IMG/VR virus record: IMGVR_UViG_3300001485_000179
Location: 1,501-65,500 of that record
Length of the DNA stretch: 64,000 nt
Source: a virus
Direction: 5' to 3' (one strand)
Every line of letters starts with the position of its first letter. The stretch's first letter is position 1. The notes beneath the pieces were generated by a model. The model made no database searches, had not been told where the DNA came from, and was given only the letters and a program-made list of their open reading frames with translations. The position numbers and the translations under genes were made by a program. Below, in pieces: positions 3,801-63,144 of this stretch.

Positions 3801-4886
3801 GAGTGTTTATTTGGTCCTAAATTCACTAAGTATTTTAGGGAAATTGTAGAAGGTAGAGTTAGTATAAAGCACGAAGCTTGGGATGAGGTAAATAAAATGC
3901 TAGATGGCAAATTAACACCATATATTCAAAAGGTTAAAGATGGGGAAATGACATCTAAATCACTAGCAAATGCTTTGAAGACTGCTATAAATTCAGTATA
4001 TGGTTTAACTGCTGCTAACTTCGAGAATGCATTTAGAGATAATCGAAATAAAGATAATATTGTTGCTAAACGTGGTGCATTATTTATGGTTGATTTAAAA
4101 GAAGAAGTTCAAAAACGAGGATTCACAGTTGCTCATATCAAAACTGATTCTATAAAGATACCTAATGCAACACCAGAAATAATTAAATTTGTTATGGAAT
4201 TTGGTGAAAAGTACGGATATACATTTGAACATGAGGCTACATACGAGAAAATGTGTTTAGTAAATGATGCGGTATATATTGCTAAATATAGCGATTCTGA
4301 ATTATGTGAAAAAGAATATGGTTATGTTCCAAGCGATTGTATTAAACATGGTGGCGAATGGACCGCTACTGGTGCTCAATTTCAAGTTCCATATGTATTT
4401 AAGACATTATTTACTAAAGAACCAATTAAATTTGAAGATATGTGTGAAACTAAATCAGTTAAGTCAGCATTATATTTGGATTTGAACGAGAGTTTACCAG
4501 ATGTATCAGAAGCTGAAAAAGAAATGGATAAATTAAAGAAAAATCATAAACTTGGAAAAATATCTGACGGTGAATATGAAACTACTAAAATGGAATTAGA
4601 ATCTGAAATAAAAGAAGGTCATGATTATAAATTTGTCGGAAAAGTCGGTAACTTTTGTCCTATTTTACCAGGAAATGGCGGCGGATTATTAATGCGTGAC
4701 CAGGATGGAAAATATAATTCTGTTGGTGGTAGTAAAGGATATCGTTGGGTTGAATCAGAACTTATAAGAGATGATTTTGAAAAAGGAAACGATATAATCG
4801 ATAGGGGTTATTATAACGAATTAGTTGATGAAGCTGTCGAAACTATTTCACAATATGGTGATTTTGAAATGTTTGCTGATAGCTAA
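834..4886 (+). CDS. Fused SF3 (D5-like) helicase / AEP-type primase / 3'-5' exonuclease / family-B-like DNA polymerase
   Basis: Walker A GAAGTGKST; primase-like VIDFDIK and GIHLHY; exonuclease FYDIE, GFNNRRYD, YCDND; polymerase LLDIASMHPH, KTAINSVYG, KTDSI. Confidence 0.9.
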   Translation: MADFLIVSEHYCKNNIIEIVPKFKVYPKSTDLMIRGGDFYAVWLEDKKIWSTNEDDALAIIDSEIYKVAEKANKENPECTIVPKYTWDSSSGSIDSWHKYCQKQKRDSFEMLDEHIVFSNTDIKKEDYASKKLPYPLEPGNIDAYDKLISTLYSPEERRKLEWAIGSIVTGDSKNIQKFLVLYGAAGTGKSTILNIIQQLFDGYYSVFDAKALGSANNSFALESFKSNPLVAIQHDGDLSRIEDNTRLNSLVSHELMTVNEKFKSTYSNRFKCFLFMGTNKPVKITDGKSGLIRRLIDVHPTGDKVSSKEYKTLTSQIKFELGAIAYHCMEVYKENPGAYDHYIPTSMMSASNDFYNFVLDSYHIFKREDGVTLKSAWEMYKTYCDEAKVGYPFSQRAFKEELKNYFKEYNDRFNIDGERVRSYYSGFKKDIFNSEERENIVEIQPEQYVIDFKEQDSIFDKECFDCLAQYANVNEIPNKKWDDVTTTLKELDTHKVHYVKIPENHIVIDFDIKDENGNKSYEKNLEAASKWPKTYAELSKSGSGIHLHYIYTGDVTKLSRVYADSIEIKVFTGKSSLRRKLTKCNNLPISTINSGLPIKEVKRVVSDNVIKSEKSLRQLIERNLNKEIHPGTKPSVDFIYKILEDSYEQGLTYDVSNMKNDIISFAMNSTNHSDYCLKLVNKMHFKSDEPSISVDSKKDKLVFYDIEVFPNLFIVNWKIRGKENPIIRMINPLAKDIEDMLQYKIIGFNNRRYDNHIIYARLLGYSNDQLYNLSQRIIAGDKNAFFGEAYNLSYTDIYDFASSGNKKSLKKLEIEMGIHHQELGLPWDQPVPEELWAKVAEYCDNDVIATEAAFDYLEADWTARQILADLAGMTVNDTTNTLTTKIIFGNNKKPQSEFCYRDLSKPVFEIDDDVKEFLEEACPEMMAQAHGPEHSLLPYFPGYEYKAGVSTYKGEEVGEGGFVFAVPGMYNKVALLDIASMHPHSIIAECLFGPKFTKYFREIVEGRVSIKHEAWDEVNKMLDGKLTPYIQKVKDGEMTSKSLANALKTAINSVYGLTAANFENAFRDNRNKDNIVAKRGALFMVDLKEEVQKRGFTVAHIKTDSIKIPNATPEIIKFVMEFGEKYGYTFEHEATYEKMCLVNDAVYIAKYSDSELCEKEYGYVPSDCIKHGGEWTATGAQFQVPYVFKTLFTKEPIKFEDMCETKSVKSALYLDLNESLPDVSEAEKEMDKLKKNHKLGKISDGEYETTKMELESEIKEGHDYKFVGKVGNFCPILPGNGGGLLMRDQDGKYNSVGGSKGYRWVESELIRDDFEKGNDIIDRGYYNELVDEAVETISQYGDFEMFADS

Positions 4887-4914
4887 TTCGCGTAAAAAAC
4901 ATATGATATAATGA
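4887..4914 (+). promoter_or_regulatory. Phage promoter motif TTCGCG-N7-CA-N5-TATAATGA (copy 1)
   Basis: ttcgcgtaaaaaacatatgatataatga; same motif and spacing recur at 11 other sites, nearly all intergenic. Confidence 0.85.
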
Positions 4915-4915
4915 G

Positions 4916-5030
4916 AAGAATAGACGGATATACCAATCCGAATTATATATAGAATGGGAACGATTTAGAAGACTCATAGTGGTAGGTTAGAAAAGTATAA
5001 ATCGATATATAATTTACTATTCTTTTTTAT
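4916..5030 (+). ncRNA. Candidate structured small RNA (~110 nt)
   Basis: Directly after a promoter; nested complementary pairs 4916-4923/5017-5024, 4925-4929/4936-4940, 4941-4950/5005-5014, 4961-4967/4998-5004; ends in T-run; no RBS-led ORF. Confidence 0.6.
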
Positions 5031-7272: not shown

Positions 7273-7697
7273 TATGGGTACTGAAAATAGAAAAAATAGT
7301 AAGTGGACTAAAACCGATTATGAAAGAGTTGTAGATAGTAATATAAAATTAGTGGATCAAAACAAACAATTACGATTAGATATTGATTTAATAATTAGAT
7401 ATTTTACAAATAAAAATCGTTTAAATCCGGAGGAAATAAGAATAGCAGAAGTAGTTATTAAAAGCTATTCTAGAGTAGATGAAGGGAAGATGAGAGATGC
7501 GAGTGCTTAAAGCAACTTATGCTAATAACGATAAAGATGTTGAATATATTAAGCGAAACAGATTTAAATTATTCAATAATATAATTATTGCACCATCTAA
7601 TATTATGGATAAAATAACTTTAGATGATAAATTATATAAACAATTAATAATTCAACAAAATAGATTTGCTATTAATAACTATAGGGACATAAAATAA

Positions 7698-7725
7698 TTC
7701 GCGTAAAAAACACTTCTTATAATGA
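7698..7725 (+). promoter_or_regulatory. Phage promoter motif (copy 2), upstream of membrane-anchored ORF 7744-7986
   Basis: ttcgcgtaaaaaacacttcttataatga. Confidence 0.85.
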
Positions 7726-7984: not shown

Positions 7985-8019
7985 AAGAGTTTAGGCGATT
8001 GACCTAGACTCTTATTTTT
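7985..8019 (+). terminator. Intrinsic terminator closing the 7698 cassette
   Basis: AAGAGTTTAGG/CCTAGACTCTT stem followed by atttttt-like run. Confidence 0.7.
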
Positions 8020-9449
8020 AAATAATTAGGAGTGATTTGTGATGAGTGAAATAAATATTAAAAATAAATATATTAGAACATCACGAGGTTATATAGGAAA
8101 AATTGATGCTGAGAGGTTGTCAAAAAATCAATTTCAATTTCATTTAGATAGTAATGAAGGGGATATTAACGATGAACATAATATATCTATAATGAATAAA
8201 TCTATAAAATGGAATGGATACAATGAAATAATTAAAGGTGCTGGACCTACAAATAATATATTAAAGTTATTAATAACTGGAGATATTGTAGTTATCGAAT
8301 ATTTTAATGGTGTTGAGACAGTTAGAGATACAGCTATAGTAAAAAGAAAAGATGATGAAAATAATATCATTTTATATTTCGATACTGGAACAGATCAATT
8401 ATTTAGATATTCTGATAATAGATTAGAATATGTTAGAAAGTTAAATTTATTAAAAAATGATGATTTATATACCACAGTAGGACCGAATAAAATAAAACCT
8501 AAAATAATAAGAATATTAACTGTTGAAAAAGTATTTATTGAAGGGTACAAATTATGATAAAAATAGAGGATTTGGAGTGTAAGTATTGTAAACCTGGCTC
8601 AATAATAGATATAAGTGGTGATTTACCGATAAGAATTGAAGTGGATCCAGACGGATATATAATATCTATTTACAATGGTATACATGAAGCAATTAAAATA
8701 AATTATTGTCCTATTTGCGGTAAAAAATTAAAAAAGGAGATTAAAAATGTCAGATGATAAAATAGATGATATTTTAAAAAAATTAAAGGTTATATTTCTC
8801 ACAGTATTGATAACTTTTATAATATTTATTGTGATATATTGTGAAATTTCAGGCGGTTGGTTTTAATTTAAATAATATTTTAAGAGGTGATTTATAATGG
8901 ATAAAAAAGAAATGATTTATAATATGTATAAAGATAGTGTTATAGTTAGTAAAAAATTTAAAAATATGTTAAAAGAAAAATATGGATTTAATGCCGTAGA
9001 AGCTGATGATTTATTTGTTAGAATAAATAATTATCAAATAAAGAAATATGGTGGTCGATTAGATGTTGATACACAAATCGGATTGACTAAAGAAGAATTG
9101 AAACATATAAATAAAATGGCTAGACAACGAGAAAATTCTAGAAAATATAGATAGGTGATATTTATGGCAGAATATATAATAGATAAAAGTACAAATGAAA
9201 AGTATGAATATGTTGTTTGGCGAATGAGTAGTACTGGAAACGGTAGTTGTTCTAAAAGTGTATTTCATAGCAATGATGAATCAGAATGCAAAAAGTTTAT
9301 TAGTAAACAACGTAGAAAAGATTCTTATAGAGCTAAGAAATTATTAAAACAACAAGAAAGTATCTCAGAAAAAAGACGTGTTTTACAAGAAGAGTATAAC
9401 GAAAGAATGCAATGTGTTAAAGGATACAGAAAAGATACGGAGGTTATTT

Positions 9450-18750: not shown

Positions 18751-18783
18751 AAAGGATATTTACAAGGTGAAAGGAGTGATGAT

Positions 18784-19469: not shown

Positions 19470-19763
19470 ATGAAATTGGAAAGTGAGTTTCAACATAATT
19501 TGAAAAAAGAGTTGAAAGAATTGCTTCCGGGTTGTATGATACTTAAGCTAGACCCGAATGATACTCAAGGTATTCCAGACTTATTAATTCTATATGAAAA
19601 TAAATGGGCTACTTTGGAAAACAAAAAATCAGCAAAAGCAAAACATCGACCTAATCAAGATTATTATGTTGAAAAAATGGATAATATGTCATTTTCAAGA
19701 TTTATATATCCAGAGAACAAAGAAGAGGTTGTTGAGAAACTCACTTCCTTTTTCAATAAATAG
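19470..19763 (+). CDS. VRR-NUC domain nuclease (putative Holliday-junction resolvase)
   Basis: LESEFQ, QGIPDLLIL, LENK, RPNQ motifs. Confidence 0.85.
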   Translation: MKLESEFQHNLKKELKELLPGCMILKLDPNDTQGIPDLLILYENKWATLENKKSAKAKHRPNQDYYVEKMDNMSFSRFIYPENKEEVVEKLTSFFNK

Positions 19764-19778
19764 AAAGGAGCGATATAA

Positions 19779-20336
19779 ATGATATTTAAAAATCATTCTA
19801 ATCTCGAAGGTACTCATGCACCATTCTCAGCAAGTAAATCAAGTTGGTTAAGATATACCGATGAGAAAATAGTAGAGGTTAGAGATAACATGAAAGCAAA
19901 AGAGCTAGGAACTCGTTTGCATGAATGGGCTGCAGAAACTATAAAGCTAGGTATTAAAATGCCTAGAACAAAGAAAACTATAAATGCATATGTTAATGAT
20001 GCTATTGGTTTTAATATGACTCCAGAAGTGGTTTTATTTTATTCTATGTATTTTTATGGTACAGCAGATACTATAAACTACAATGAAAAAACAAAGGTGT
20101 TAAGAATACATGATTTAAAGACTGGTAAAATTCCAGCGCATATGGATCAATTGATTGTGTATGCTGCATTATTTTGTTTGGAATATAAAGTTGACCCTAA
20201 GGAGTTAACATCAATAATATTAAGAATATATCAATGTGACGATATTATAGAGTATTTACCAACTGCTGAAGAAGTAATTGATGTTATGAATATAATTGTT
20301 CATTTTGATAATGTGTTAAGAGAGGGTGATAATTAG
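19779..20336 (+). CDS. PD-(D/E)XK exonuclease-like protein
   Basis: SASKSSWL, GTRLH, YGTAD, IHDLKTG, QLIVYA. Confidence 0.8.
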   Translation: MIFKNHSNLEGTHAPFSASKSSWLRYTDEKIVEVRDNMKAKELGTRLHEWAAETIKLGIKMPRTKKTINAYVNDAIGFNMTPEVVLFYSMYFYGTADTINYNEKTKVLRIHDLKTGKIPAHMDQLIVYAALFCLEYKVDPKELTSIILRIYQCDDIIEYLPTAEEVIDVMNIIVHFDNVLREGDN

Positions 20337-20337
20337 A

Positions 20338-23300
20338 ATGAGTCAAAAATTAGCTGATGAAATAATTAGTTATTTGGGTTCTTCTAAATGGTCTGAAGAG
20401 GAATTTCTAGAACATGTCGGATTAGACCATATTGAATCTAAAGTTGGTCCAGGTTCTGGAAGATATCATTATGGTTCTGGTGATAAACCAATTCAAAGAC
20501 CTAAAGATTTCCTGCAAGAAGTTGAACGATTAAAATTAGGTGGTTGGAAAGAGACTCCTGAAAATATTAAAAATACTTTTGGATTATCTATAAATGATTA
20601 CAGAGCAGAAAAAAGAATCTGTAAAGAAGACAGACAAGCAGTTATATTTTCTAGAGTAAGAAAAATAATGGAAGAACATCCTACTTGGGGAGATACTCAA
20701 ATAGGTAGAGAATTAGGAAATGTTAGTGAATCTACAGTTAGAGGCTATAAACTACAGATGGCTAAAACTAAAGAAAATCAAACTAGAGATTTGGCAGCTT
20801 CTCTAAAGAAAAGAATAGATGAATCTAAATATGGAATGATTGATGTTGGTAAAGGTGTAGAAAAAGAAATAAATGTATCTAGAGAAAAATTAGATGCTGC
20901 TTTATATTTACTAGAAAAAGAAGGCTACGGAACATATAGTAACCGTATTCCACAACCAACAAATAAAAATAACCAAACCATTCAAAAAGTATTATGTAAA
21001 CCAGAAATAAAACCATCAAAAGGAAAAAGTACACCTGCTGAATTATATAATTATGACCAGATTGAAACACTAACAAAATATATTTCTAGAGATAATGGTA
21101 AAACATTAGAAAAGAAATTTAATTACCCAGAGTCATTAGATTCTAAGAGATTGAAAATAAGATATGCTGAAGATAAAGATTCTGATGGTATTAAAGGTGT
21201 TGATAAAGATGGTGTTATTGAATTAAGAAGAGGTGTTAAAGATTTAAGTCTTAATGGCGACCATTATTCTCAAGTTCGTATATTAGTTGATGGAACACAT
21301 TATTTAAAAGGTATGGCTGTTTATGGCGACGACAAAGACTTTCCACCAGGAGTAGATGTTATATTCAATACTAATAAACCTAGAGGAACTCCAGTTATGG
21401 ACCCTGATAAAAATGTAAAACAAGTATTGAAAAATATTAAGAACGATCCAGAAAACCCTTTTGGTTCTACAATAAAAGATGCAGACCAAGGTGGACAATA
21501 TTGGTATACTGATGAAAAAGGTAAAAAGAAATTAGGTTTAATTAATAAGAAATCAGCTGAAGGTGATTGGACTGAATGGTCTGATGCATTACCTTCACAA
21601 TTCTTATCTAAGCAAAGTATTACATTGATTAAGAAACAGTTAGGTTTAGCAAAAGCAAACAAAACAGAAGAGTTCGAGGAAATAAATAATTTAACAAATC
21701 CAGTTATAAAGAAATACTATCTTCAAAAGTTTGCTGATGGTTGTGATAAGGCTGCTGTAGATTTAAAAGCCGCTGCTTTACCAGGACAAAAATATCATGT
21801 TATTATACCTAATAATACATTAAAAGAAGACGAAGTTTATGCTCCTGGGTATGCTGATGGTACTAAATTAGCATTAATAAGATATCCACATTCTGGAACA
21901 TTCGAAATTCCAGTATGTACTGTTAACAATAAAAATAAATTAGGACAAAAATTAATTGGCAAATCGGATACTATTGATGCTGTATGTATTAATAAAAAAG
22001 TAGCAGACCAATTATCAGGCGCTGATTTTGATGGCGATACTGTAATGTGTATTCCAACTGACGATCCTAAAGGCAGAGTAAAAGTTTCTAGAAGACCATA
22101 TTTACAGGATTTGAAAGACTTTGATCCTGGAATGTATGAAGGTGAACCAGTTTACGATTCTAATGGTAAAATAAAAACAGATAATAAAGGTAACAAAATA
22201 TATAAATATGACGGTCATGAATTTACAGCTATGTCAAACAGAACTAAACAAAGAGAAATGGGTGTAGTTTCAAATCTTATAACTGATATGACATTACAAG
22301 GTGCTAATGACAAAGATTTAGCAATGGCTGTTAAACATTCTATGGTTGTTATTGATGCTGAAAAACATAAATATGATTATAAAGCAAGTGAAATAGATAA
22401 TGAAATATCTAGATTAAAAGCAAAGTATCAAATAAAGAGAGATGCTGATGGAAATGTTATAGGTTATGGTGGAGCAGGAACTATTGTTTCTAGAGCTAAA
22501 GGAGAAGAAAGAATAGACAAAAGACAAGGACAACCTAAAGTAAATATTAAAGGTAAATCCTATTATGACCCAAATAAACCAGAAGGTTCTCTAATATACA
22601 CTCAAGCAGACCCTAGTAAACTATACTTTGCTGTAAGTAGCATCGACCAAACTACTGGTATAAGGACTATGACTACTATAGATGGTAAAAAGATATCCTA
22701 TGATACAAGGGATCCTAAGGCTAAAGATAAATATGCCCCAGTATTACATGTAGCTAAAGATGGTACTGGATATTATACAAATAAAAAAGGTGACATAATT
22801 TATAGAACCACTAAAAGAACTGATACAAGTACAAGAATGGCTGAAGCAGACGATGCTAGAACCCTAATAGGAGACCCTCATAATGCTAAGGAGATAGCCT
22901 ATGCTGACTATGCTAATAGTCTAAAATCACTAGCTAATAATGCTAGACTAGAGATATATAATACTAAGAACTTACAATATAACCCTACCGCTGCTAGACA
23001 GTATGCTAAACAGGTTAGCTCACTAGAAGCTAAGCTAAATGACGCACAGAAGAACGCATGGAGGGAGAGGGAAGCATTACGTAAATCTAATGTAGAATTA
23101 AGTAAACGTATATCTGAGGACCCTTCATTATCAGGAGAAGACCTTAAAAAGCTTGGCCAACGTTCTCTAAGCAAGAATAGAGAAGAGATAGGGTCTGTTT
23201 CTAGAAGAAAACGTAATATAACAATTGATGACGAAGAATGGGAAGCTATACAAGCAGGCGCTATAAGTAACAATAAATTAAAGCAAATACTTGACAATTC

Positions 23301-23475
23301 AGATCCTGATTCTTTAAGACAAAGAGCAATGCCTAAACCACAAGTTTCACTTTCGCCAGCACAAATAGAAAGAGCTAAGCGAATGGCTGATTCTAACTTT
23401 ACTATAGAACAAATAGCTAAAAAGATGGGCGTTTCTAAGTCTACACTTTATAAGTATTTGAAAGGAGTTGAATAA
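20338..23475 (+). CDS. Single-chain double-psi-beta-barrel RNA polymerase (YonO/RdRP-like) with HTH domains
   Basis: LIRYPHSG (R-x-P) and LSGADFDGD catalytic motifs; C-terminal HTH FTIEQIAKKMGVSKSTLYKYL; N-terminal HTH-like DTQIGRELGNVSESTVR. Confidence 0.75.
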   Translation: MSQKLADEIISYLGSSKWSEEEFLEHVGLDHIESKVGPGSGRYHYGSGDKPIQRPKDFLQEVERLKLGGWKETPENIKNTFGLSINDYRAEKRICKEDRQAVIFSRVRKIMEEHPTWGDTQIGRELGNVSESTVRGYKLQMAKTKENQTRDLAASLKKRIDESKYGMIDVGKGVEKEINVSREKLDAALYLLEKEGYGTYSNRIPQPTNKNNQTIQKVLCKPEIKPSKGKSTPAELYNYDQIETLTKYISRDNGKTLEKKFNYPESLDSKRLKIRYAEDKDSDGIKGVDKDGVIELRRGVKDLSLNGDHYSQVRILVDGTHYLKGMAVYGDDKDFPPGVDVIFNTNKPRGTPVMDPDKNVKQVLKNIKNDPENPFGSTIKDADQGGQYWYTDEKGKKKLGLINKKSAEGDWTEWSDALPSQFLSKQSITLIKKQLGLAKANKTEEFEEINNLTNPVIKKYYLQKFADGCDKAAVDLKAAALPGQKYHVIIPNNTLKEDEVYAPGYADGTKLALIRYPHSGTFEIPVCTVNNKNKLGQKLIGKSDTIDAVCINKKVADQLSGADFDGDTVMCIPTDDPKGRVKVSRRPYLQDLKDFDPGMYEGEPVYDSNGKIKTDNKGNKIYKYDGHEFTAMSNRTKQREMGVVSNLITDMTLQGANDKDLAMAVKHSMVVIDAEKHKYDYKASEIDNEISRLKAKYQIKRDADGNVIGYGGAGTIVSRAKGEERIDKRQGQPKVNIKGKSYYDPNKPEGSLIYTQADPSKLYFAVSSIDQTTGIRTMTTIDGKKISYDTRDPKAKDKYAPVLHVAKDGTGYYTNKKGDIIYRTTKRTDTSTRMAEADDARTLIGDPHNAKEIAYADYANSLKSLANNARLEIYNTKNLQYNPTAARQYAKQVSSLEAKLNDAQKNAWREREALRKSNVELSKRISEDPSLSGEDLKKLGQRSLSKNREEIGSVSRRKRNITIDDEEWEAIQAGAISNNKLKQILDNSDPDSLRQRAMPKPQVSLSPAQIERAKRMADSNFTIEQIAKKMGVSKSTLYKYLKGVE

Positions 23476-23478
23476 TCT

Positions 23479-23757
23479 ATGAATAATGAAGAAGAAACAA
23501 AAGAATTCATGTTAACGACAATTGATAATCCTTATAATCCTTTCACACAATTTGATGAATGGTTTCAGTTTGATGTTGACAATAATTATTCAACTTGTTC
23601 AAAGATTGCAAGACTTGCAAACATTAAAGATTACATGTCAAATGCTCAAAAAGATGAAGAAACAGCAAAAGCTATTGATAGATTAATTGAAATTGATCCT
23701 TTTGATGTGTATGTAAAGGTATATAGTACCGAAAAAGACATAGGGGAGGGGGTCTAA
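23479..23757 (+). CDS. Conserved hypothetical protein preceding the genome end
   Basis: 92 aa, MLTTIDNPYNPFTQFDEW motif, AAGGAG RBS. Confidence 0.8.
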   Translation: MNNEEETKEFMLTTIDNPYNPFTQFDEWFQFDVDNNYSTCSKIARLANIKDYMSNAQKDEETAKAIDRLIEIDPFDVYVKVYSTEKDIGEGV

Positions 23758-23815
23758 AAACATACCCCCCGTCCTTTATCGCGCCCCTCTTTAAAAATTC
23801 TCCGGAAAGGATTTT
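23742..23815. other. Probable cos/genome-terminus region (candidate 9-nt overhang CGCGCCCCT at 23780-23788)
   Basis: GC-rich island (GGGGAGGGGG...CCCCCC...CGCGCCCCT...TCTCCGGA) just upstream of terS candidate, HNH and terL. Confidence 0.6.
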
Positions 23816-23828
23816 TGAAAAAACATTT

Positions 23829-24002
23829 TAGCATAGGTAGTGCTTAGTGTGACTTATAAGTTGAAATGACATTTTATCGCAGCTCACTCCTAATTATTTA
23901 AACGTATAAAAAGACATCATTTATATCGCTCCTTTCCTTGTAAACCACCATAAAAACTATACATAAAGTCCTTATAAGTCACGCTAAGCATTATCTATAC
24001 TA
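23829..24002 (+). ncRNA. Candidate multi-target antisense RNA: 32-bp stem with anti-RBS loop
   Basis: Arms 23829-23860 and 23971-24002 (28 WC, 3 G.U, 1 mismatch); loop 23884-23902 is the reverse complement of 8017-8035; loop 23916-23936 is the reverse complement of 19763-19783. Confidence 0.7.
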
Positions 24003-24034
24003 TTATAAAAAGCTAGATAAATAGTTAGAAAGGA

Positions 24035-24373
24035 GTGATGACTATTACAAAAGTATCTAACGATATGAAACCTGCTCTAACTCCAGAAGCTAAAGAGAAT
24101 CAAATGATATACTTAGCGACCTCACTAGCCGAAAAACAATTAAAAGATGGTACTGCATCTTCTCAAGTAATAACACATTATTTAAAATTAGCAACTGAAG
24201 AGACACGAAGAAAAAATAAATTACTAGAAATGCAAACTAAGTTAGCCGCTGCTAAAACAGAATCATTAGAATCTGCTAAAGAAATAGAAGAACTATATAA
24301 AGAGGCTATAAAAGCAATGAACCACTATAAAGGTCTTGATGAGGAGAATGAATTAGAGAATGGTCAACAATAA
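24035..24373 (+). CDS. Putative terminase small subunit
   Basis: First gene after the cos candidate; PALTPEAKENQMI, GTASSQVITHYLKL, coiled coil. Confidence 0.55.
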   Translation: MMTITKVSNDMKPALTPEAKENQMIYLATSLAEKQLKDGTASSQVITHYLKLATEETRRKNKLLEMQTKLAAAKTESLESAKEIEELYKEAIKAMNHYKGLDEENELENGQQ

Positions 24374-24791
24374 AAATATTAAAACTTATTCAGAATTAAG
24401 TAAGTTAAAAACTTTTGAAGAGCGATTTGATTACCTTAATCTAAACGGAGTAGTTTGTGAAGAGACTTTTGGTTTTGATAGATATTTAAACCAAAAATTT
24501 TATAATTCAACTGAATGGAGAAATATTAGAAATAGAGTAATAGCTAGAGATAAAGGTTGTGACTTGGGATGTGATGGTTATGAAATAAATTATGACAAAA
24601 TATTAATTCACCACATGAATCCAATAACTCAAGATGATATAATAAATAAATCAAAATATTTATTAGATCCTGAGTATCTTATAACAACTGTTAAAAAAAC
24701 TCATGATGCTATACATTATGGTGATAGGAGTGAATTATATCCAGAACCAGTTGAAAGATTTAAAAATGATATGTGTCCATGGATACATTAA
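24360..24791 (+). CDS. HNH endonuclease (packaging-associated)
   Basis: W..IRNRVIARDKGCD, LIHHMNP, THDAIHYG. Confidence 0.85.
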   Translation: MVNNKNIKTYSELSKLKTFEERFDYLNLNGVVCEETFGFDRYLNQKFYNSTEWRNIRNRVIARDKGCDLGCDGYEINYDKILIHHMNPITQDDIINKSKYLLDPEYLITTVKKTHDAIHYGDRSELYPEPVERFKNDMCPWIH

Positions 24792-24804
24792 GGAGGAATA
24801 AAAA

Positions 24805-25251
24805 ATGAGTAGAAGTAACTATAGAAGTTATTATAAAGAAAAAGAAAATAATGAAGATATTAAAGATAATATCGTAGATAATGTTGAAGATGATGTTAAA
24901 GATGATATCGTAGAAGACATTAACGATGATGTTAAAGATGACGTTGTAGATAATGTTGAAGATGATGTTAAAGATGATATCGTAGAAGACATTAACGATG
25001 ATGTTAAAGATGACGTTGTAGATAATGTCGAAGATGATGTTAAAGATGATGAAATAACAGTAGGTGTTGTTGTTAATTGTACAAGATTAAATGTTAGAAG
25101 AACTGCTAATAGATTATCAAAAGTTTTAACAGTAATAGAAAAAGGAACTAGTGTAATTATAGAAAACGCAAAACCATCTAATGGATTTTACAAAGTAAAA
25201 GTAGATGATATAGAAGGTTATTGTGTAAAAGATTATATAGAAATTAGATAA
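24805..25251 (+). CDS. Acidic-repeat protein with C-terminal SH3b domain
   Basis: Asp/Val repeats, then LNVRRTAN..VLTVIEKG..GFYKV..EGYCVKDYI. Confidence 0.8.
   Translation: MSRSNYRSYYKEKENNEDIKDNIVDNVEDDVKDDIVEDINDDVKDDVVDNVEDDVKDDIVEDINDDVKDDVVDNVEDDVKDDEITVGVVVNCTRLNVRRTANRLSKVLTVIEKGTSVIIENAKPSNGFYKVKVDDIEGYCVKDYIEIR
24874..25050 (+). repeat. 72-bp tandem repeat (~2.5 copies, 12-bp subperiod)
   Basis: Units start at 24874, 24946 and 25018. Confidence 0.9.
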
Positions 25252-25262
25252 GGTGATTGCTT

Positions 25263-25601
25263 ATGTTTGATGAAAGCATATTAGACTCTATAAAGAAAAT
25301 GCTAGGTATAGAACCATCTTGTGAAGATTTCGATTCAAGTATAATAAGTCACATCAACACTGCTTTCATGACATTAAATCAGTTAGGTGTTGGTCCTGAA
25401 AAAGGATACCGAATAAAAAATAATTCTAATGAATGGAAAGAATTCATAAATGAAGATATGCAGTTAGATGATGTTAAAGACTATATTTATTTAAAAGTTA
25501 AAATGATATTTGACCCACCTATAAATGGTTCAATTATAGAATCTTACAAACAAACTATTCAAGAATTAGAATGGCGATTAATGATAAAAGGAGATGAGTA
25601 A
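25263..25601 (+). CDS. Head-tail adaptor/connector protein
   Basis: SILDSIKKMLG, HINTAF..L.QLGVGP, FDPP, ELEWRL. Confidence 0.7.
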   Translation: MFDESILDSIKKMLGIEPSCEDFDSSIISHINTAFMTLNQLGVGPEKGYRIKNNSNEWKEFINEDMQLDDVKDYIYLKVKMIFDPPINGSIIESYKQTIQELEWRLMIKGDE

Positions 25602-25603
25602 TA

Positions 25604-26197
25604 ATGGATAATCAACAAAATAACTCAGATGAATTATATCATTATGGTAGAATAGGAATGAAATGGGGTCAACATATATTTGGTGATATTAAAAAAACAG
25701 CCCTAGCATATGTTAAAAGAAAAAATAAAGAAAAGAACATAAATGAAAATACCAAAATGCAAATAAAGAAATTAAAAAAGCTTGCTAAAGAAGAAGCAAG
25801 AAAAAGAAAATTTCAGAAAAAGCAAAATAAAAAAATAGCAAACGCTAAAAAACATATATTAGATAAATATGGTATAGATTATGGTAAAGACAATGTCCCA
25901 AATAAAGAAAAACCAGTTACAAAAAGTAACCAATTATCTAAAAAACAAATAAAAAATCTATCAGATACAGATTTAAGTGAACGTTTAAAAAGATTAGAAA
26001 ATGAGAAAAAACTTATAGAATTACAGAGTTACCATGCTACACTAGGTCAAAAATTTATACGATCAGCCATGAAAGATCTGCTTATTCCAGGTGCTATCAA
26101 AGCCGGAAAAGAACTAACAGCTAAGTATTTACAAAAATATGGCGATATGGGACTTGAAGCCCTTGGTGAAGAATTAAATAAAAAGAGGAAAAAGTAA
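25604..26197 (+). CDS. Basic protein with ELYHYG..GMKWG N-terminal motif
   Basis: DELYHYGRIGMKWGQH, Lys-rich body. Confidence 0.75.
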   Translation: MDNQQNNSDELYHYGRIGMKWGQHIFGDIKKTALAYVKRKNKEKNINENTKMQIKKLKKLAKEEARKRKFQKKQNKKIANAKKHILDKYGIDYGKDNVPNKEKPVTKSNQLSKKQIKNLSDTDLSERLKRLENEKKLIELQSYHATLGQKFIRSAMKDLLIPGAIKAGKELTAKYLQKYGDMGLEALGEELNKKRKK

Positions 26198-27942
26198 TGG
26201 CATTATCTAATACAGCTACACCTAAGTATTACGCTATGTTTAGGGATGCTGTAATAAAGGGTGAGATAGCGATAAATGAAAACATCGAAATGGAAATGAA
26301 CCGAATCGATGAATTAATAAAAAATCCTGGCTTTTATTATGACGATAAAGCTATGGATGGTTGGATAGATTTTTGTGAAAACGAATTAACACTAACAGAC
26401 GGTAGTGATTTGAAATTACTCGACTCATTTAAATTATGGGCCGAAGAATTGTTTTGTTGGTATTATTTTGTAGAACGTAGTGTATATATGCCATCTAAAG
26501 ATGGATATGGTGGTTATTATGTTAGAAAAAAGATTAAAAAGAGATTAATAAATAAACAATATCTTATAGTAGCGAGAGGAGCCGCTAAATCGCAATATCA
26601 ATCATATATTCATCAATATTTTTTAAATGTAGATACATCAACCACACATCAAGTTCACATAGCACCAACAATGTATCAAGCAGAGCAAGTATTAGCGCCA
26701 ATGAGAACCTCTATAGCCAGAGCTAAAGGCCCACTGTTTAAATTTTTAACAGAAGGTTCTATAAATAACACAACTGGTAATAGAGCGAAAAGACCAAAAT
26801 TGGCTCCTACAAAAAAGGGTATTGAAAATTTCTTAACTAATTCATTAGTAGAAATAAAACCAATGTCCATAGATAAAGTTCAAGGACTAAATAGTAGAAT
26901 AAATACTGTTGATGAATGGTTATCAGGCGATATAAGAGAAGATGTTATAGGTGCACTTGAACAAGGAGCTTCTAAAAACGATGATTATCTTATAGTTGCT
27001 GTTAGCTCAGAGGGTACCGTAAGAAATGGTCCTGGTGATACAATCAAAATGGAGCTTATGGATATTCTAAAAGGCGAATATTACAATCCACATGTGTCTA
27101 TATGGTGGTATAAATTAGATAGTATAGATGAAGTAGGTCAACCTGATAAATGGATAAAAGCAAATCCAAATTTAGGTAAAACGGTTTCTTATGAAACATA
27201 CCAGCTCGACGTAGAAAGAGCCGAAAAAGCCCCTTCTAATAGAAATGATATTTTAGCTAAACGTTTTGGAATACCAATGGAAGGTTATACTTATTTCTTT
27301 ACCTATGAAGAAACATTACCACATAGAAAATCTGAATATTTCGGTATGCCATGTTCTTTAGGGGCCGATTTATCTCAAGGTGACGACTTTTGTTCATTTA
27401 CTTTCTTGTTTCCACTTCGCGATGGAGCTTTTGGTATAAAAACAAGAAATTATATAACTGAAAGAACCTTAAATAGATTACCGGGAGCCATGAGATTAAA
27501 GTATGATGAATTTATAAATGAGGGTACTTTAATAATAATGGATGGTACTATATTAGACCCTATGGAGATATATGATGATCTTACTCAATATATAGAGGAT
27601 GTCCAATATGATGTTAGATCATTTGGATATGACCCATATAATGCAAAAGATTTTGTAGAAAGATGGGAAAGAGAAAACGGACCATATGGAATAGAGAAAG
27701 TAATACAAGGAGCTAAGACTGAATCGGTTCCATTAGGAGAAATAAAAATGTTAGCCGAAGACAGATTACTACTATTCGATGAATTAATAATGAAATTCAC
27801 TATGGGTAACTGTATAATATTACAAGATACTAATGGTAATAAAAAGTTATATAAGAAAAGATCAGACCAGAAAATCGATTCAGTAGCTGCTATGATGGAT
27901 GCTTATGTAGCTTATAAAAATAATAGAGAAGCTTTTGAATAA
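26197..27942 (+). CDS. terL: Terminase large subunit
   Basis: VARGAAKS Walker A, TVDEW Walker B, GADLSQGDD nuclease, YDPYN, KIDSVAA. Confidence 0.95.
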   Translation: MALSNTATPKYYAMFRDAVIKGEIAINENIEMEMNRIDELIKNPGFYYDDKAMDGWIDFCENELTLTDGSDLKLLDSFKLWAEELFCWYYFVERSVYMPSKDGYGGYYVRKKIKKRLINKQYLIVARGAAKSQYQSYIHQYFLNVDTSTTHQVHIAPTMYQAEQVLAPMRTSIARAKGPLFKFLTEGSINNTTGNRAKRPKLAPTKKGIENFLTNSLVEIKPMSIDKVQGLNSRINTVDEWLSGDIREDVIGALEQGASKNDDYLIVAVSSEGTVRNGPGDTIKMELMDILKGEYYNPHVSIWWYKLDSIDEVGQPDKWIKANPNLGKTVSYETYQLDVERAEKAPSNRNDILAKRFGIPMEGYTYFFTYEETLPHRKSEYFGMPCSLGADLSQGDDFCSFTFLFPLRDGAFGIKTRNYITERTLNRLPGAMRLKYDEFINEGTLIIMDGTILDPMEIYDDLTQYIEDVQYDVRSFGYDPYNAKDFVERWERENGPYGIEKVIQGAKTESVPLGEIKMLAEDRLLLFDELIMKFTMGNCIILQDTNGNKKLYKKRSDQKIDSVAAMMDAYVAYKNNREAFE

Positions 27943-59305: not shown

Positions 59306-59374
59306 ATATTATTAACATATCCTTTTATTTTTCGCGTTAATTACAGGGCTTATAATGAGAGGAGAGATAAATAT

Positions 59375-59635: not shown

Positions 59636-59691
59636 GGTTCTTTTCTTTTTTCGCTTAATAATCACGTCTTATAATGAGAGGAGAGATATAA

Positions 59692-59865
59692 ATGAAAGAT
59701 ACTAAATTATTAGTCATCGTTGAGGCTAGTTGTTTATATTTAGCTACTAAATCAATAATTAGTTTATGTAAAAGTTATTACAATAAAGGCTATAGAGATG
59801 GAGCTAAAGATATGACTATCGAGTCTATCAAAATAATGACTAAAGATGATAAAGTTGAAGATTAA
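59692..59865 (+). CDS. 57-aa membrane-anchored protein (cassette); absent from ORF track
   Basis: MKDTKLLVIVEASCLYLATK...KVED; own promoter, RBS and terminator. Confidence 0.75.
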   Translation: MKDTKLLVIVEASCLYLATKSIISLCKSYYNKGYRDGAKDMTIESIKIMTKDDKVED

Positions 59866-59925
59866 TAAATCTTCTTTTTATTTTTCGCGTTATTTACAGG
59901 GCTTATAATGAGAGGAGAGATATAA

Positions 59926-60120
59926 ATGGAAATTGGATATTTAGGTAATATATTAATGGAAATTGGAGGTTTGCTACTTGTAGCATCTGGTTGTATAGGC
60001 ATATATTATATAGGCTTATCAACAGGTAAACAAAGAGCAACTGACAATATAAAAGATTTATTACGCAAAAATTCTGATGAAAATGGAATATGTAAAATCC
60101 AAACAAATATTGAGGGTTAA
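59926..60120 (+). CDS. 64-aa membrane protein (cassette)
   Basis: TM IGGLLLVASGCIGIYYIGL. Confidence 0.75.
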   Translation: MEIGYLGNILMEIGGLLLVASGCIGIYYIGLSTGKQRATDNIKDLLRKNSDENGICKIQTNIEG

Positions 60121-60180
60121 ATACCCTTTATATTTTCGCGTAAAAAACATACGATATAATGAGAAAAAGGAGATGATTAT

Positions 60181-60916: not shown

Positions 60917-60986
60917 CTCGAATTAGAAGCTTATGCTTCTTTTTTTCGCGTAAAAAACATATGATATAATGAAAGGAGAGATAAAT

Positions 60987-62083: not shown

Positions 62084-62127
62084 TTTTCGCGATAAAATCA
62101 TATCTTATAATGAAAGGAGAGATATAA

Positions 62128-62277
62128 ATGAAAGATAAAAAGTTGTTAATTGTAAAAATTGGAGGAATAATAGCATCAATAATTGGTATGATTATTAGTG
62201 CGTTTGTTTCAACAAAAGAAAATGAACGAAATATCAAGAAATTTGTAGATGAAAAAATGAATGAAAGCGGAAAATAA
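62128..62277 (+). CDS. 49-aa membrane peptide (cassette); absent from ORF track
   Basis: MKDKKLLIVKIGGIIASIIGMIISAFV... Confidence 0.7.
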   Translation: MKDKKLLIVKIGGIIASIIGMIISAFVSTKENERNIKKFVDEKMNESGK

Positions 62278-62308: not shown

Positions 62309-63073
62309 ATGAACAAATTAGAAAATGTTGCTAATAATGTTAAAAAGACTTTCATTAAACATAGTCCTGAAATTTTAACTGGAATTGGTATTGCCGGTAC
62401 TGTGGGGGCGACAGTTTTAGCGGTAACTACAACATCAAAGGTTACAATGAAAATTCAAGATATTGAAAAAGAAAGAAATTCTAAATTATCAAATAAAGAA
62501 TTAATAAAGATTTGTTGGAAAGACTATGCTCCTGTAGTTGCTTTAGAAGTATTTTCTATAGGATGTATAATTGGTGGTAACAGCATAAATCTTAAAAGAA
62601 ATGCGGCACTAGGAACAGCATGTGCTATATCAGAGAGGGCTTTATCAAAATATAAAGATAAGGTTATTGAAACAATTGGTGAAAAAGAAGAAAAGAAAAT
62701 AAGAGATAAAATACATGAAGACGAAATAAAAGAAAATCCACCAAAGAATAATACTATAATAGTTACATCAAACGGTAATACATTATTTAGAGATGAAATA
62801 TCTGGTAGATATTTTAGATCTGATATGAATAGTATAAATAAAGTTATAAATGAACTTAATGAAAAAATAAATCATCAAGATTATGTATCATTAAACGAAT
62901 TATATTCTGGGTATGGATTAGAACCATTGAAAGATGGTGATATGATTGGATGGAATATAGTTAATGGTATAATAAAATTAGATGTATCAACTTGCTTAGT
63001 AGATGGTACAGAGCCATGTATAGTATTGGATTATGAGAAATTACCAACTCATGATTTTAATACATGGTCATAA
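62309..63073 (+). CDS. DUF6353-like phage membrane protein (paralog of 61352)
   Basis: KHSPEILTGIGIAG, WKDYAP, SGRYFRS, VSLNELY, IGW. Confidence 0.8.
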   Translation: MNKLENVANNVKKTFIKHSPEILTGIGIAGTVGATVLAVTTTSKVTMKIQDIEKERNSKLSNKELIKICWKDYAPVVALEVFSIGCIIGGNSINLKRNAALGTACAISERALSKYKDKVIETIGEKEEKKIRDKIHEDEIKENPPKNNTIIVTSNGNTLFRDEISGRYFRSDMNSINKVINELNEKINHQDYVSLNELYSGYGLEPLKDGDMIGWNIVNGIIKLDVSTCLVDGTEPCIVLDYEKLPTHDFNTWS

Positions 63074-63144
63074 TTCGCGTAAAAAACATATGATATAATG
63101 AGAGGAATCTCATAAATTTTAGTAAGATTAGGAGGAATGATTAT

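Follow-up and report, generated by a model that had tools for sequence, protein, structure and literature searches.

The question raised by this locus is what a long, conserved inverted repeat does in the short interval between the left cohesive end (cos) of a gut phage genome and its first left-arm gene. The element occupies positions 23829-24002 of the window, by which we mean the whole 64,000-nucleotide (nt) stretch analyzed here (bases 1501-65500 of the 65.5-kb uncultured virus record IMGVR_UViG_3300001485_000179; G+C 29.8%), and begins about 40 nt inside the left cos end. All long reading frames that tile the window lie on the + strand. From its sequence features the element probably controls translation. 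The reading that we tentatively favor, with somewhat less than even confidence, is that of a structured + strand RNA whose loop would pair in trans with the start regions of the phage's own mRNAs. The element is composed as follows.

23829-23860, + strand: 5' arm of the stem, pairing with 23971-24002.
23861-23970, + strand: loop of 110 nt, mostly unpaired in the predicted minimum-free-energy and centroid folds.
23884-23902, + strand: guide segment 1, exact antisense of 8017-8035 (19 nt), from reverse-complement matching.
23916-23936, + strand: guide segment 2, exact antisense of 19763-19783 (21 nt), from reverse-complement matching; it contains the anti-Shine-Dalgarno (anti-SD) core.
23929-23936, + strand: anti-SD core CTCCTTTC, a family-wide conserved motif according to the loop comparison.
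23971-24002, + strand: 3' arm of the stem, from an inverted-repeat search; its core CTTATAAGTCAC is nearly invariant in an alignment of 20 sequences.

The inverted repeat consists of two 32-nt arms with 110 nt in between and is complementary at 28 of 32 positions. Four positions are not Watson-Crick; three of these read G.T on the + strand (G.U in a transcript) and one is A.C. A continuous RNA duplex of at least about two helical turns is thereby present, with 28 Watson-Crick and three G.U pairs over the 32 positions. These values agree with a preliminary description of the locus made from the sequence alone, which had given the repeat, its coordinates and the three G.U positions. A protein search of IMG/VR with the first gene yielded 524 confirmed relatives, from which 80 loci were kept, and a stem was called in relatives when a gapless inverted repeat with a score of at least 13 was located ahead of the first gene. 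This was the case in 58 of the 80 loci, where arm length ranges over 19-39 nt and loop length over 49-196 nt; the 22 loci that scored below 13 included 15 with less than 240 nt of upstream sequence. The same element, with 23-nt arms and a 129-nt loop, was found in Faecalibacterium phage FP_oengus, where the gene order is that of the window: polymerase, small open reading frame (ORF), gap, first gene. In the distant relatives L091 and L096, a gapless scan of the 1.1 kb 3' of the polymerase gene revealed no repeat (scores 9 and 8). Two other phages were considered and not counted as members, Lactococcus phage 1706, which has anti-SD motifs but a weak 9-nt repeat, and Streptomyces phage Bing, with CCTCC motifs in its 157-nt left leader and a 10-nt repeat only.

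Between sub-lineages the arms have wholly different sequences while their complementarity is kept. For one sub-family, 20 sequences picked for alignable arms were analyzed with RNAalifold, resulting in 29 consensus pairs, of which 23 have changed in both partners. In this alignment 97.3% of the cells were paired, compared to 83.3 ± 0.8 in 500 shuffles, none of which reached the observed value (0/500), and pairing dropped to 32-49% of cells when the partner was slid by one to three columns. The 5' arm of the aligned sub-family varies mainly by A>G and C>T transitions, by which RNA pairing with the 3' arm is retained as G.U; the core of the 3' arm is near-invariant. Covariation alone cannot tell an RNA helix from two inverted protein sites, but mismatches can. 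Over 50 distinct arm pairs, 1281 positions were Watson-Crick, 101 were G.U on the + strand and 29 were G.U only on the - strand (binomial p 1.6e-10, a value overstated by the relatedness of the loci), whereas a ratio of about 1.2 to 1 would be expected from base composition alone. Taken individually, 38 arm pairs lean to the + strand and 8 to the - strand, with 4 ties. These wobble counts, like those given below for loops, micro-ORFs, cis pairing and accessibility, were obtained on 39-49 hand-listed loci of the 80 (score at least 13, plus L008 at score 11), from which exact duplicates had been removed manually or merged by a script and L046 was inadvertently missing. Judged by these comparisons the helix is conserved with the pairing of a + strand RNA, and the assignment of the stem to a + strand RNA helix is well supported.

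The loop carries a conserved motif in a fixed orientation. CTCCTT was present on the + strand in 42 of 44 distinct relatives' loops, typically 23-46 nt ahead of the 3' arm, and its reverse complement in none of the 44. On the + strand of the whole 65.5-kb genome, CTCCTTT has a single copy, which is the one in the loop, and its complement has 29. Six complete or near-complete genomes contain one to four copies on the + strand, one or two of them always in the loop. A general promoter motif was considered and ruled out, because CTCCTTT is almost absent from the + strand elsewhere. The predicted unpaired probability was 0.70 for the motif versus 0.50 for the rest of the loop and was higher for the motif in 39 of 48 cases. 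On this loop comparison, the feature common to the family is a consensus-like loop sequence complementary to ribosome-binding sites (RBSs), in one orientation.

In the window the complementarity extends well beyond this core. The following start regions are concerned.

8017-8035, + strand: target 1, RBS region of ORF 8039-8557.
18759-18780, + strand: candidate target, RBS of an XRE/HTH (helix-turn-helix) regulator gene with an HTH_3 domain, pairing across a 2-nt bulge; read directly from the sequence.
19763-19783, + strand: target 2, RBS and ATG of the exonuclease-like gene 19779-20336 (phrog_3953 exonuclease).
62112-62131, + strand: near-match to the 21-mer (19 of 20 positions) in a member of the early promoter-leader cassette family.

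All four had been proposed in the preliminary description. Both exact matches were reproduced, the near-match was recovered by a pattern with one N, and the pairing of the loop with the regulator RBS can be read from the sequence. The window contains eight inverted exact repeats of at least 16 nt; the longest two are the guide matches and the next has 17 nt. As a control that keeps RBS composition we used the 85 real start regions of the genome, whose longest direct exact matches elsewhere have a median length of 12 nt, with 19 nt attained in 4 and 21 nt in 2 cases. It is therefore well beyond chance that a single loop of 110 nt holds two such long matches. The long matches between start regions appear to belong to duplicated promoter-leader cassettes. 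The 21-mer is part of the leader family GAAAGGAG-N-GATATAAATGA, which heads several early promoter cassettes in direct orientation and of which the loop holds the sole inverted copy. Members of this direct-repeat family were seen at 4884-4916, 7694-7712, 59341-59369, 59668-59694, 59894-59928, 60133-60151, 60945-60983, 62106-62137 and 63071-63103, each with an extended -10 promoter-like sequence followed by a near-identical short leader with RBS and ATG, the arrangement of an early promoter cassette.

Duplex energies between the loop and the 85 start regions averaged -17.7 kcal/mol, compared to -12.9 ± 0.74 kcal/mol for shuffled loops. The seven best targets were as follows.

Rank 1, gene start 8039, unknown ORF: -35.5 kcal/mol.
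Rank 2, gene start 19779, exonuclease-like: -33.0 kcal/mol.
Rank 3, gene start 59692, cassette gene: -29.9 kcal/mol.
Rank 4, gene start 18784, HTH regulator: -29.5 kcal/mol.
Rank 5, gene start 59926, cassette gene: -28.7 kcal/mol.
Rank 6, gene start 834, DNA polymerase: -28.3 kcal/mol.
Rank 7, gene start 11010, unknown ORF: -28.1 kcal/mol.

Each of these is an early or middle gene; with -19.4 kcal/mol, the first late gene comes 23rd among the 85. Together, the energies and the nature of the top targets favor, without proving, an action in trans.

Complementarity to the phage's own start regions is also found in close relatives, where it partly co-evolves. The loop of L123, a 96% relative, matches its own exonuclease start region on the same contig over 18 exact nt, to which a G.U and two more pairs can be added by reading, and that of L124, an 88% relative, matches its own over 13 nt, again on the same contig. 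In L124, a C>T and a T>C change in the loop are mirrored in the exonuclease target, as seen on a single contig and on separate contigs, and one further mirrored change was found besides these two substitutions in the close relatives. For all three exonuclease start regions the best pairing partner is the loop of the same phage, a comparison that covers three close lineages only. Guide segment 1 still matches the orthologous site over 15 nt in the 88% relative. Among six loops, the window's included, four have their longest match to their own genome. The long gene-specific guides (21, 18 and 13 nt) are, on these comparisons, a speciality of this phage and its close kin that elaborates a generic element, because more distant relatives keep the generic anti-SD core only. 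It had been proposed that the loop is a string of antisense guides against distant early and middle genes, and complementarity of relatives' loops to their own RBSs had been named as a check. The proposal stands as far as the complementarity to early and middle start regions is concerned and, by covariation and the 101:29 wobble ratio, as an RNA with an anti-RBS loop; a string of gene-specific guides is not a feature of the family and is restricted to the close lineage. As for the check, close kin retain the same two orthologous targets.

On the favored reading, the structured + strand RNA would lie in the untranslated stretch from the left cohesive end to the first left-arm gene, where a helix of about 30 base pairs (bp) would close a largely unpaired loop and display the anti-SD sequence. 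The transcript is assumed to originate from read-through or from some promoter that the phage polymerase recognizes. Since the interval from the polymerase gene to the first late gene is free of terminator-like sites (none in 23400-24400), transcription could continue through the joined cos site. When transcription has reached the late region, the loop would pair in trans with start regions and so lower the translation of early and middle genes. Two loop segments would have grown into guides of 19-21 nt for gene 8039 and the exonuclease gene in this lineage. The exonuclease guide may exert a feedback on polymerase synthesis, which is possible because the exonuclease frame (19779-20336) overlaps the start of the polymerase gene (20326-23475). 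The long helix would be a substrate of RNase III, whose cut could detach the late mRNA from the transcript upstream of it and set free a loop RNA protected by its paired ends. From the conserved features we infer transcription, processing and pairing in trans, and the initial suggestion of a transcript that is cut by RNase III and shuts off several operons is plausible. An extended form of this reading would apply to a large lineage of Bacillota cos phages that are kin of 1706 and FP_oengus: a stalk-closed RNA excised by RNase III from the start of the late region would mimic the sequence with which the ribosome docks mRNAs and act as a general shut-off of SD-led early and middle mRNAs, an RNA counterpart of T4 RegB, with phage-specific guides added, one of which would close a negative feedback on the polymerase. 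This wider proposal is speculative and we regard it as rather doubtful.

Several observations weigh against the favored reading. The counts over loci are non-independent as the sequences are related. Any anti-SD stretch scores well against any RBS, and the accessibility of a pyrimidine motif is partly expected from its composition. The loop of L124 pairs slightly better with the L123 target than with its own. The two mirrored substitutions would arise without selection with a rough chance of about 0.08 and are suggestive only; moreover, TGA after the SD sequence is a common variant. In relatives with 52-56% identity of the RNA polymerase, the best matches were 12-14 nt in the 16-23 kb available, and in five complete relatives the best loop matches were 17, 18, 14, 17 and 12 nt. 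These lengths are within the upper range shared among real start regions, and the relatives at 52-56% identity as well as four of the five complete ones have the generic anti-SD core only. A promoter search from cos to the 5' arm found none, with only 9-of-12 consensus matches elsewhere in the region. Finally, no RNA was seen over the element: the low-depth metatranscriptome contigs do not reach 23829-24002 and are uninformative on its presence. Three metatranscriptome runs contain small shares of the stretch, in the form of contigs in which strand and ends are unreadable; within 22500-25500, their depth is about 3x and their coverage is confined to parts of the polymerase gene and, for the first late gene, to 24029-24289 or 24048-24207. 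One contig, from the source sample, starts at 24029, the first RBS base of the first late gene, and one of a second run at 24048, at a depth too low to define a 5' end.

The element could instead be a leader that acts in cis, in which the anti-SD sequence of the loop restricts translation of the first left-arm gene, or sets its timing, by pairing with the RBS of that gene, or in which the helix only processes or stabilizes the 5' end of the late mRNA. An RNA-type helix and a motif of fixed strand and position fit this explanation equally well. In the window, 23925-23936 can pair with the RBS at 24028-24039 over 12 positions (11 complementary and one G.U, by reading); the 3' arm ends 18-167 nt, mostly 30-80 nt, ahead of the start codon in 45 loci, and every relative could form an SD/anti-SD pairing of 5-11 nt. 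Over 45 loci, however, the longest match of a loop is on average no better with the first-gene start of its own phage (7.76 nt) than with those of other phages (7.63 nt), duplex energies with this start show no preference for the own phage either, and the loop keeps TTCTCCTTTC even where the first gene uses an SD of the GAGAGGAGGC type. The first late gene also ranks low among the duplex targets of the loop, and the 19-21 nt matches to distant genes are left without an explanation. Because loops fit their own first-gene start no better than that of other phages, we reject cis action as the main explanation and consider it rather unlikely overall. A DNA packaging site, for which we see a smaller chance still, would place the arms as inverted binding sites for the small terminase or an HNH partner in a cosB-like position around a bent spacer, with the anti-SD sequence incidental or serving another purpose. 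The element does occupy the interval between the cos cut (about 23781-23790) and the first gene (24035), its arms vary between sub-lineages as binding specificities do, and the near-invariant core of the 3' arm within a sub-family suggests sequence-specific recognition. A protein site on duplex DNA does not account for the 101:29 excess of + strand G.U over A.C mismatches, for near-complete pairing across 19-39 consecutive positions or for an anti-SD motif that keeps to one strand in 42 of 44 spacers, and a spacer that ranges from 49 to 196 nt would shift the helical phasing of the two sites.

The layout of the element also recalls that of the 16S rRNA precursor, and the excised RNA might mimic the 3' end of 16S rRNA in its processing stalk as a decoy that soaks up a host defense nuclease or maturation enzyme. 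The conserved motif is indeed the anti-SD itself, located 23-46 nt ahead of the 3' strand of a long stalk. Neither the gene-specific extensions of 19-21 nt nor their partial co-evolution is explained in this way. We consider a decoy very unlikely. Equally improbable is a function of the - strand, where the RBS-like sequences would serve an antisense transcript by driving micro-ORFs or by binding ribosomes as a stabilizer. The two micro-ORFs named in the preliminary description (MMSFYTFK and MSFQLISHTKHYLC) are present in the window, the first with plausible spacing, and the - strand folds strongly (-56.5 kcal/mol, z -6.9). The view that the loop segments are only the RBSs of such micro-ORFs fails on conservation: in 18 of 40 elements, none of the loop SDs is followed by a start codon at a distance of 4-13 nt, the peptides that exist share neither length nor sequence, and the ATG is lost in the closest 88% relative; these micro-ORFs were rejected as candidates. 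In addition, the wobble bias favors the + strand, all genes are on that strand, and a - strand transcript would leave the genome end within 200 nt. In size and layout the element resembles the invertons of gut bacteria, and copying of the 21-mer by recombination is conceivable given its repeated leader family. An invertible DNA switch is ruled out by the fixed orientation of the loop, which is the same in all 44 distinct loops; no recombinase gene adjoins the element, and a DNA contig of the probable source sample, which spans 22500-24903, shows one orientation with no break at cos and no inversion joint, although a contig is blind to rare variants. A functionless scar left by an inverted duplication of gene starts is at odds with conservation and covariation in the majority of related contigs. 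Switch and scar together we judge to have hardly any probability.

The element has no counterpart among the families searched. In an Rfam scan of 23300-24500 with E values up to 1, only a chance match to a plant miRNA precursor was obtained (18.8 bits versus a gathering score of 110), and nothing in the whole window reached gathering, with no match to RF01695. The literature searched gave no description of such an element, so that its apparent novelty holds for Rfam and this literature. By mechanism, the closest known system is the c4 RNA of phages P1 and P7 (RF01695), although the element is not a c4 RNA by the membership test applied. The c4 RNA has about 77 nt, acts in lysogenic immunity and controls one operon. 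According to the review PMC12197685, c4 is a processed RNA made by a phage whose exposed segments pair around the RBS of an mRNA of its own, and its guide and target sequences change in step between related phages. In the present case RBS complementarity is present, and co-change was found in three close lineages only, where it is statistically weak. The element further differs from c4 by a stalk of about 30 bp, a loop of 49-196 nt, its position in a cos-proximal leader, its occurrence in a phage with all genes on one strand and its generic anti-SD core.

Small RNAs of Gram-positive bacteria with C/U-rich loops, such as RsaE/RoxS and the hairpins of RNAIII, expose unpaired pyrimidine motifs that are complementary to the SD sequence and can address several mRNAs. 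The predicted unpaired pyrimidine motif of the element (42 of 44 loops; 0.70 versus 0.50) resembles these. The known RNAs are chromosomal genes with their own promoter and terminator and carry the motif in small hairpin loops, whereas here no flanking terminator or convincing promoter is found and the motif is in a large loop closed by a stalk. RNase III stalks, as in rRNA precursors and the early mRNA sites of T7, are long, near-perfect intercistronic duplexes that are cut to release their contents; by analogy, the long and nearly perfect duplex between cistrons described here is a putative substrate, while the hairpins at the T7 sites are shorter, contain an internal bubble and lack an anti-SD cargo. 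The cosB region of lambda, the terminase-binding region between cosN and Nu1, occupies the same place in the genome and also has repeated elements inverted around a spacer, but wobble bias, full-length pairing and a strand-fixed motif point to RNA for the present element. T4 RegB, finally, is a phage endoribonuclease that shuts off early genes by attacking SD sequences; it is a protein nuclease, whereas the agent proposed here would be an antisense RNA.

The position of the element was defined with respect to the virion end and the first gene.

23781-23790, no strand: approximate cos cleavage zone and left physical end of the virion DNA, from the contig ends of relatives.
24035-24373, + strand: first left-arm gene, matching phrog_4259 (unknown function).

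The virion left end was placed at about 23781-23790 because two relatives, L085 and L086, have contigs that stop at the equivalent of 23780 and a third, L001, has one that starts at the equivalent of 23788, because 35 of the 80 related contigs end 200-340 nt ahead of the first gene, and because the record of Lactococcus phage 1706 opens with sequence similar to the cos region of the window. The 7-10 nt or so between the contig stops and starts of the relatives, around 23781-23790, are probably the cohesive overhang; for 1706-like phages, 3' overhangs of 9-10 nt are given in PMC4110766. The cos region, 23737-23819, is G/C-rich with a small palindrome (23790-23801 with 23808-19), and both the FP_oengus gap and the start of the 1706 record resemble it. 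A 93-nt terminal repeat on the virus record is assembly-derived. A nucleotide search of the GenBank phage collection with 23700-24100 returned no match.

The first left-arm gene had been labeled terS; this was a guess, as the gene matches phrog_4259 and a Pfam search of 24035-24373 gave no match. It is followed by an HNH endonuclease gene (24360-24791). The same pair, phrog_4259 and HNH, constitutes the first two genes of many actinobacteriophages, among them Streptomyces phage Bing, about 160-200 nt from their left ends. The large terminase (26197-27942) is 72-76% identical in protein sequence to terminases of Gordonia, Streptomyces and Rhodococcus phages, which fits a shared ancestry of Actinobacteria and Firmicutes phages reported in bioRxiv 10.1101/842583. 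Within ORF 24805-25251, a 72-nt tandem repeat (83-nt exact overlap) at 24874-25050 encodes an acidic D/V-rich repeat that precedes an SH3_3 domain. Upstream of the element, the 1049-aa protein encoded at 20326-23475 is a YonO-like polymerase (weak PF05183 match, phrog_4291, C-terminal HTH), an assignment in agreement with bioRxiv 10.1101/842583. Its C-terminal HTH scores as a resolvase-type HTH_7 (1e-08), with weak scores to small-terminase and invertase PHROGs, and could be its promoter-recognition domain.

The timing of expression in phages with their own YonO-like RNA polymerase is poorly understood. If the reading proposed here is true, the element would add a post-transcriptional layer to it, in which a conserved non-coding RNA made with the late region pairs with ribosome-binding sites. 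The element is widespread, as it was found in 58 of 80 related contigs retrieved and in FP_oengus, which was isolated on Faecalibacterium prausnitzii. Its presence in this isolate makes a bench test in a cultivable phage possible. It would provide a natural template for silencing the translation of several targets at once in Gram-positive hosts, and it marks the left end of the genome in this group of phages.

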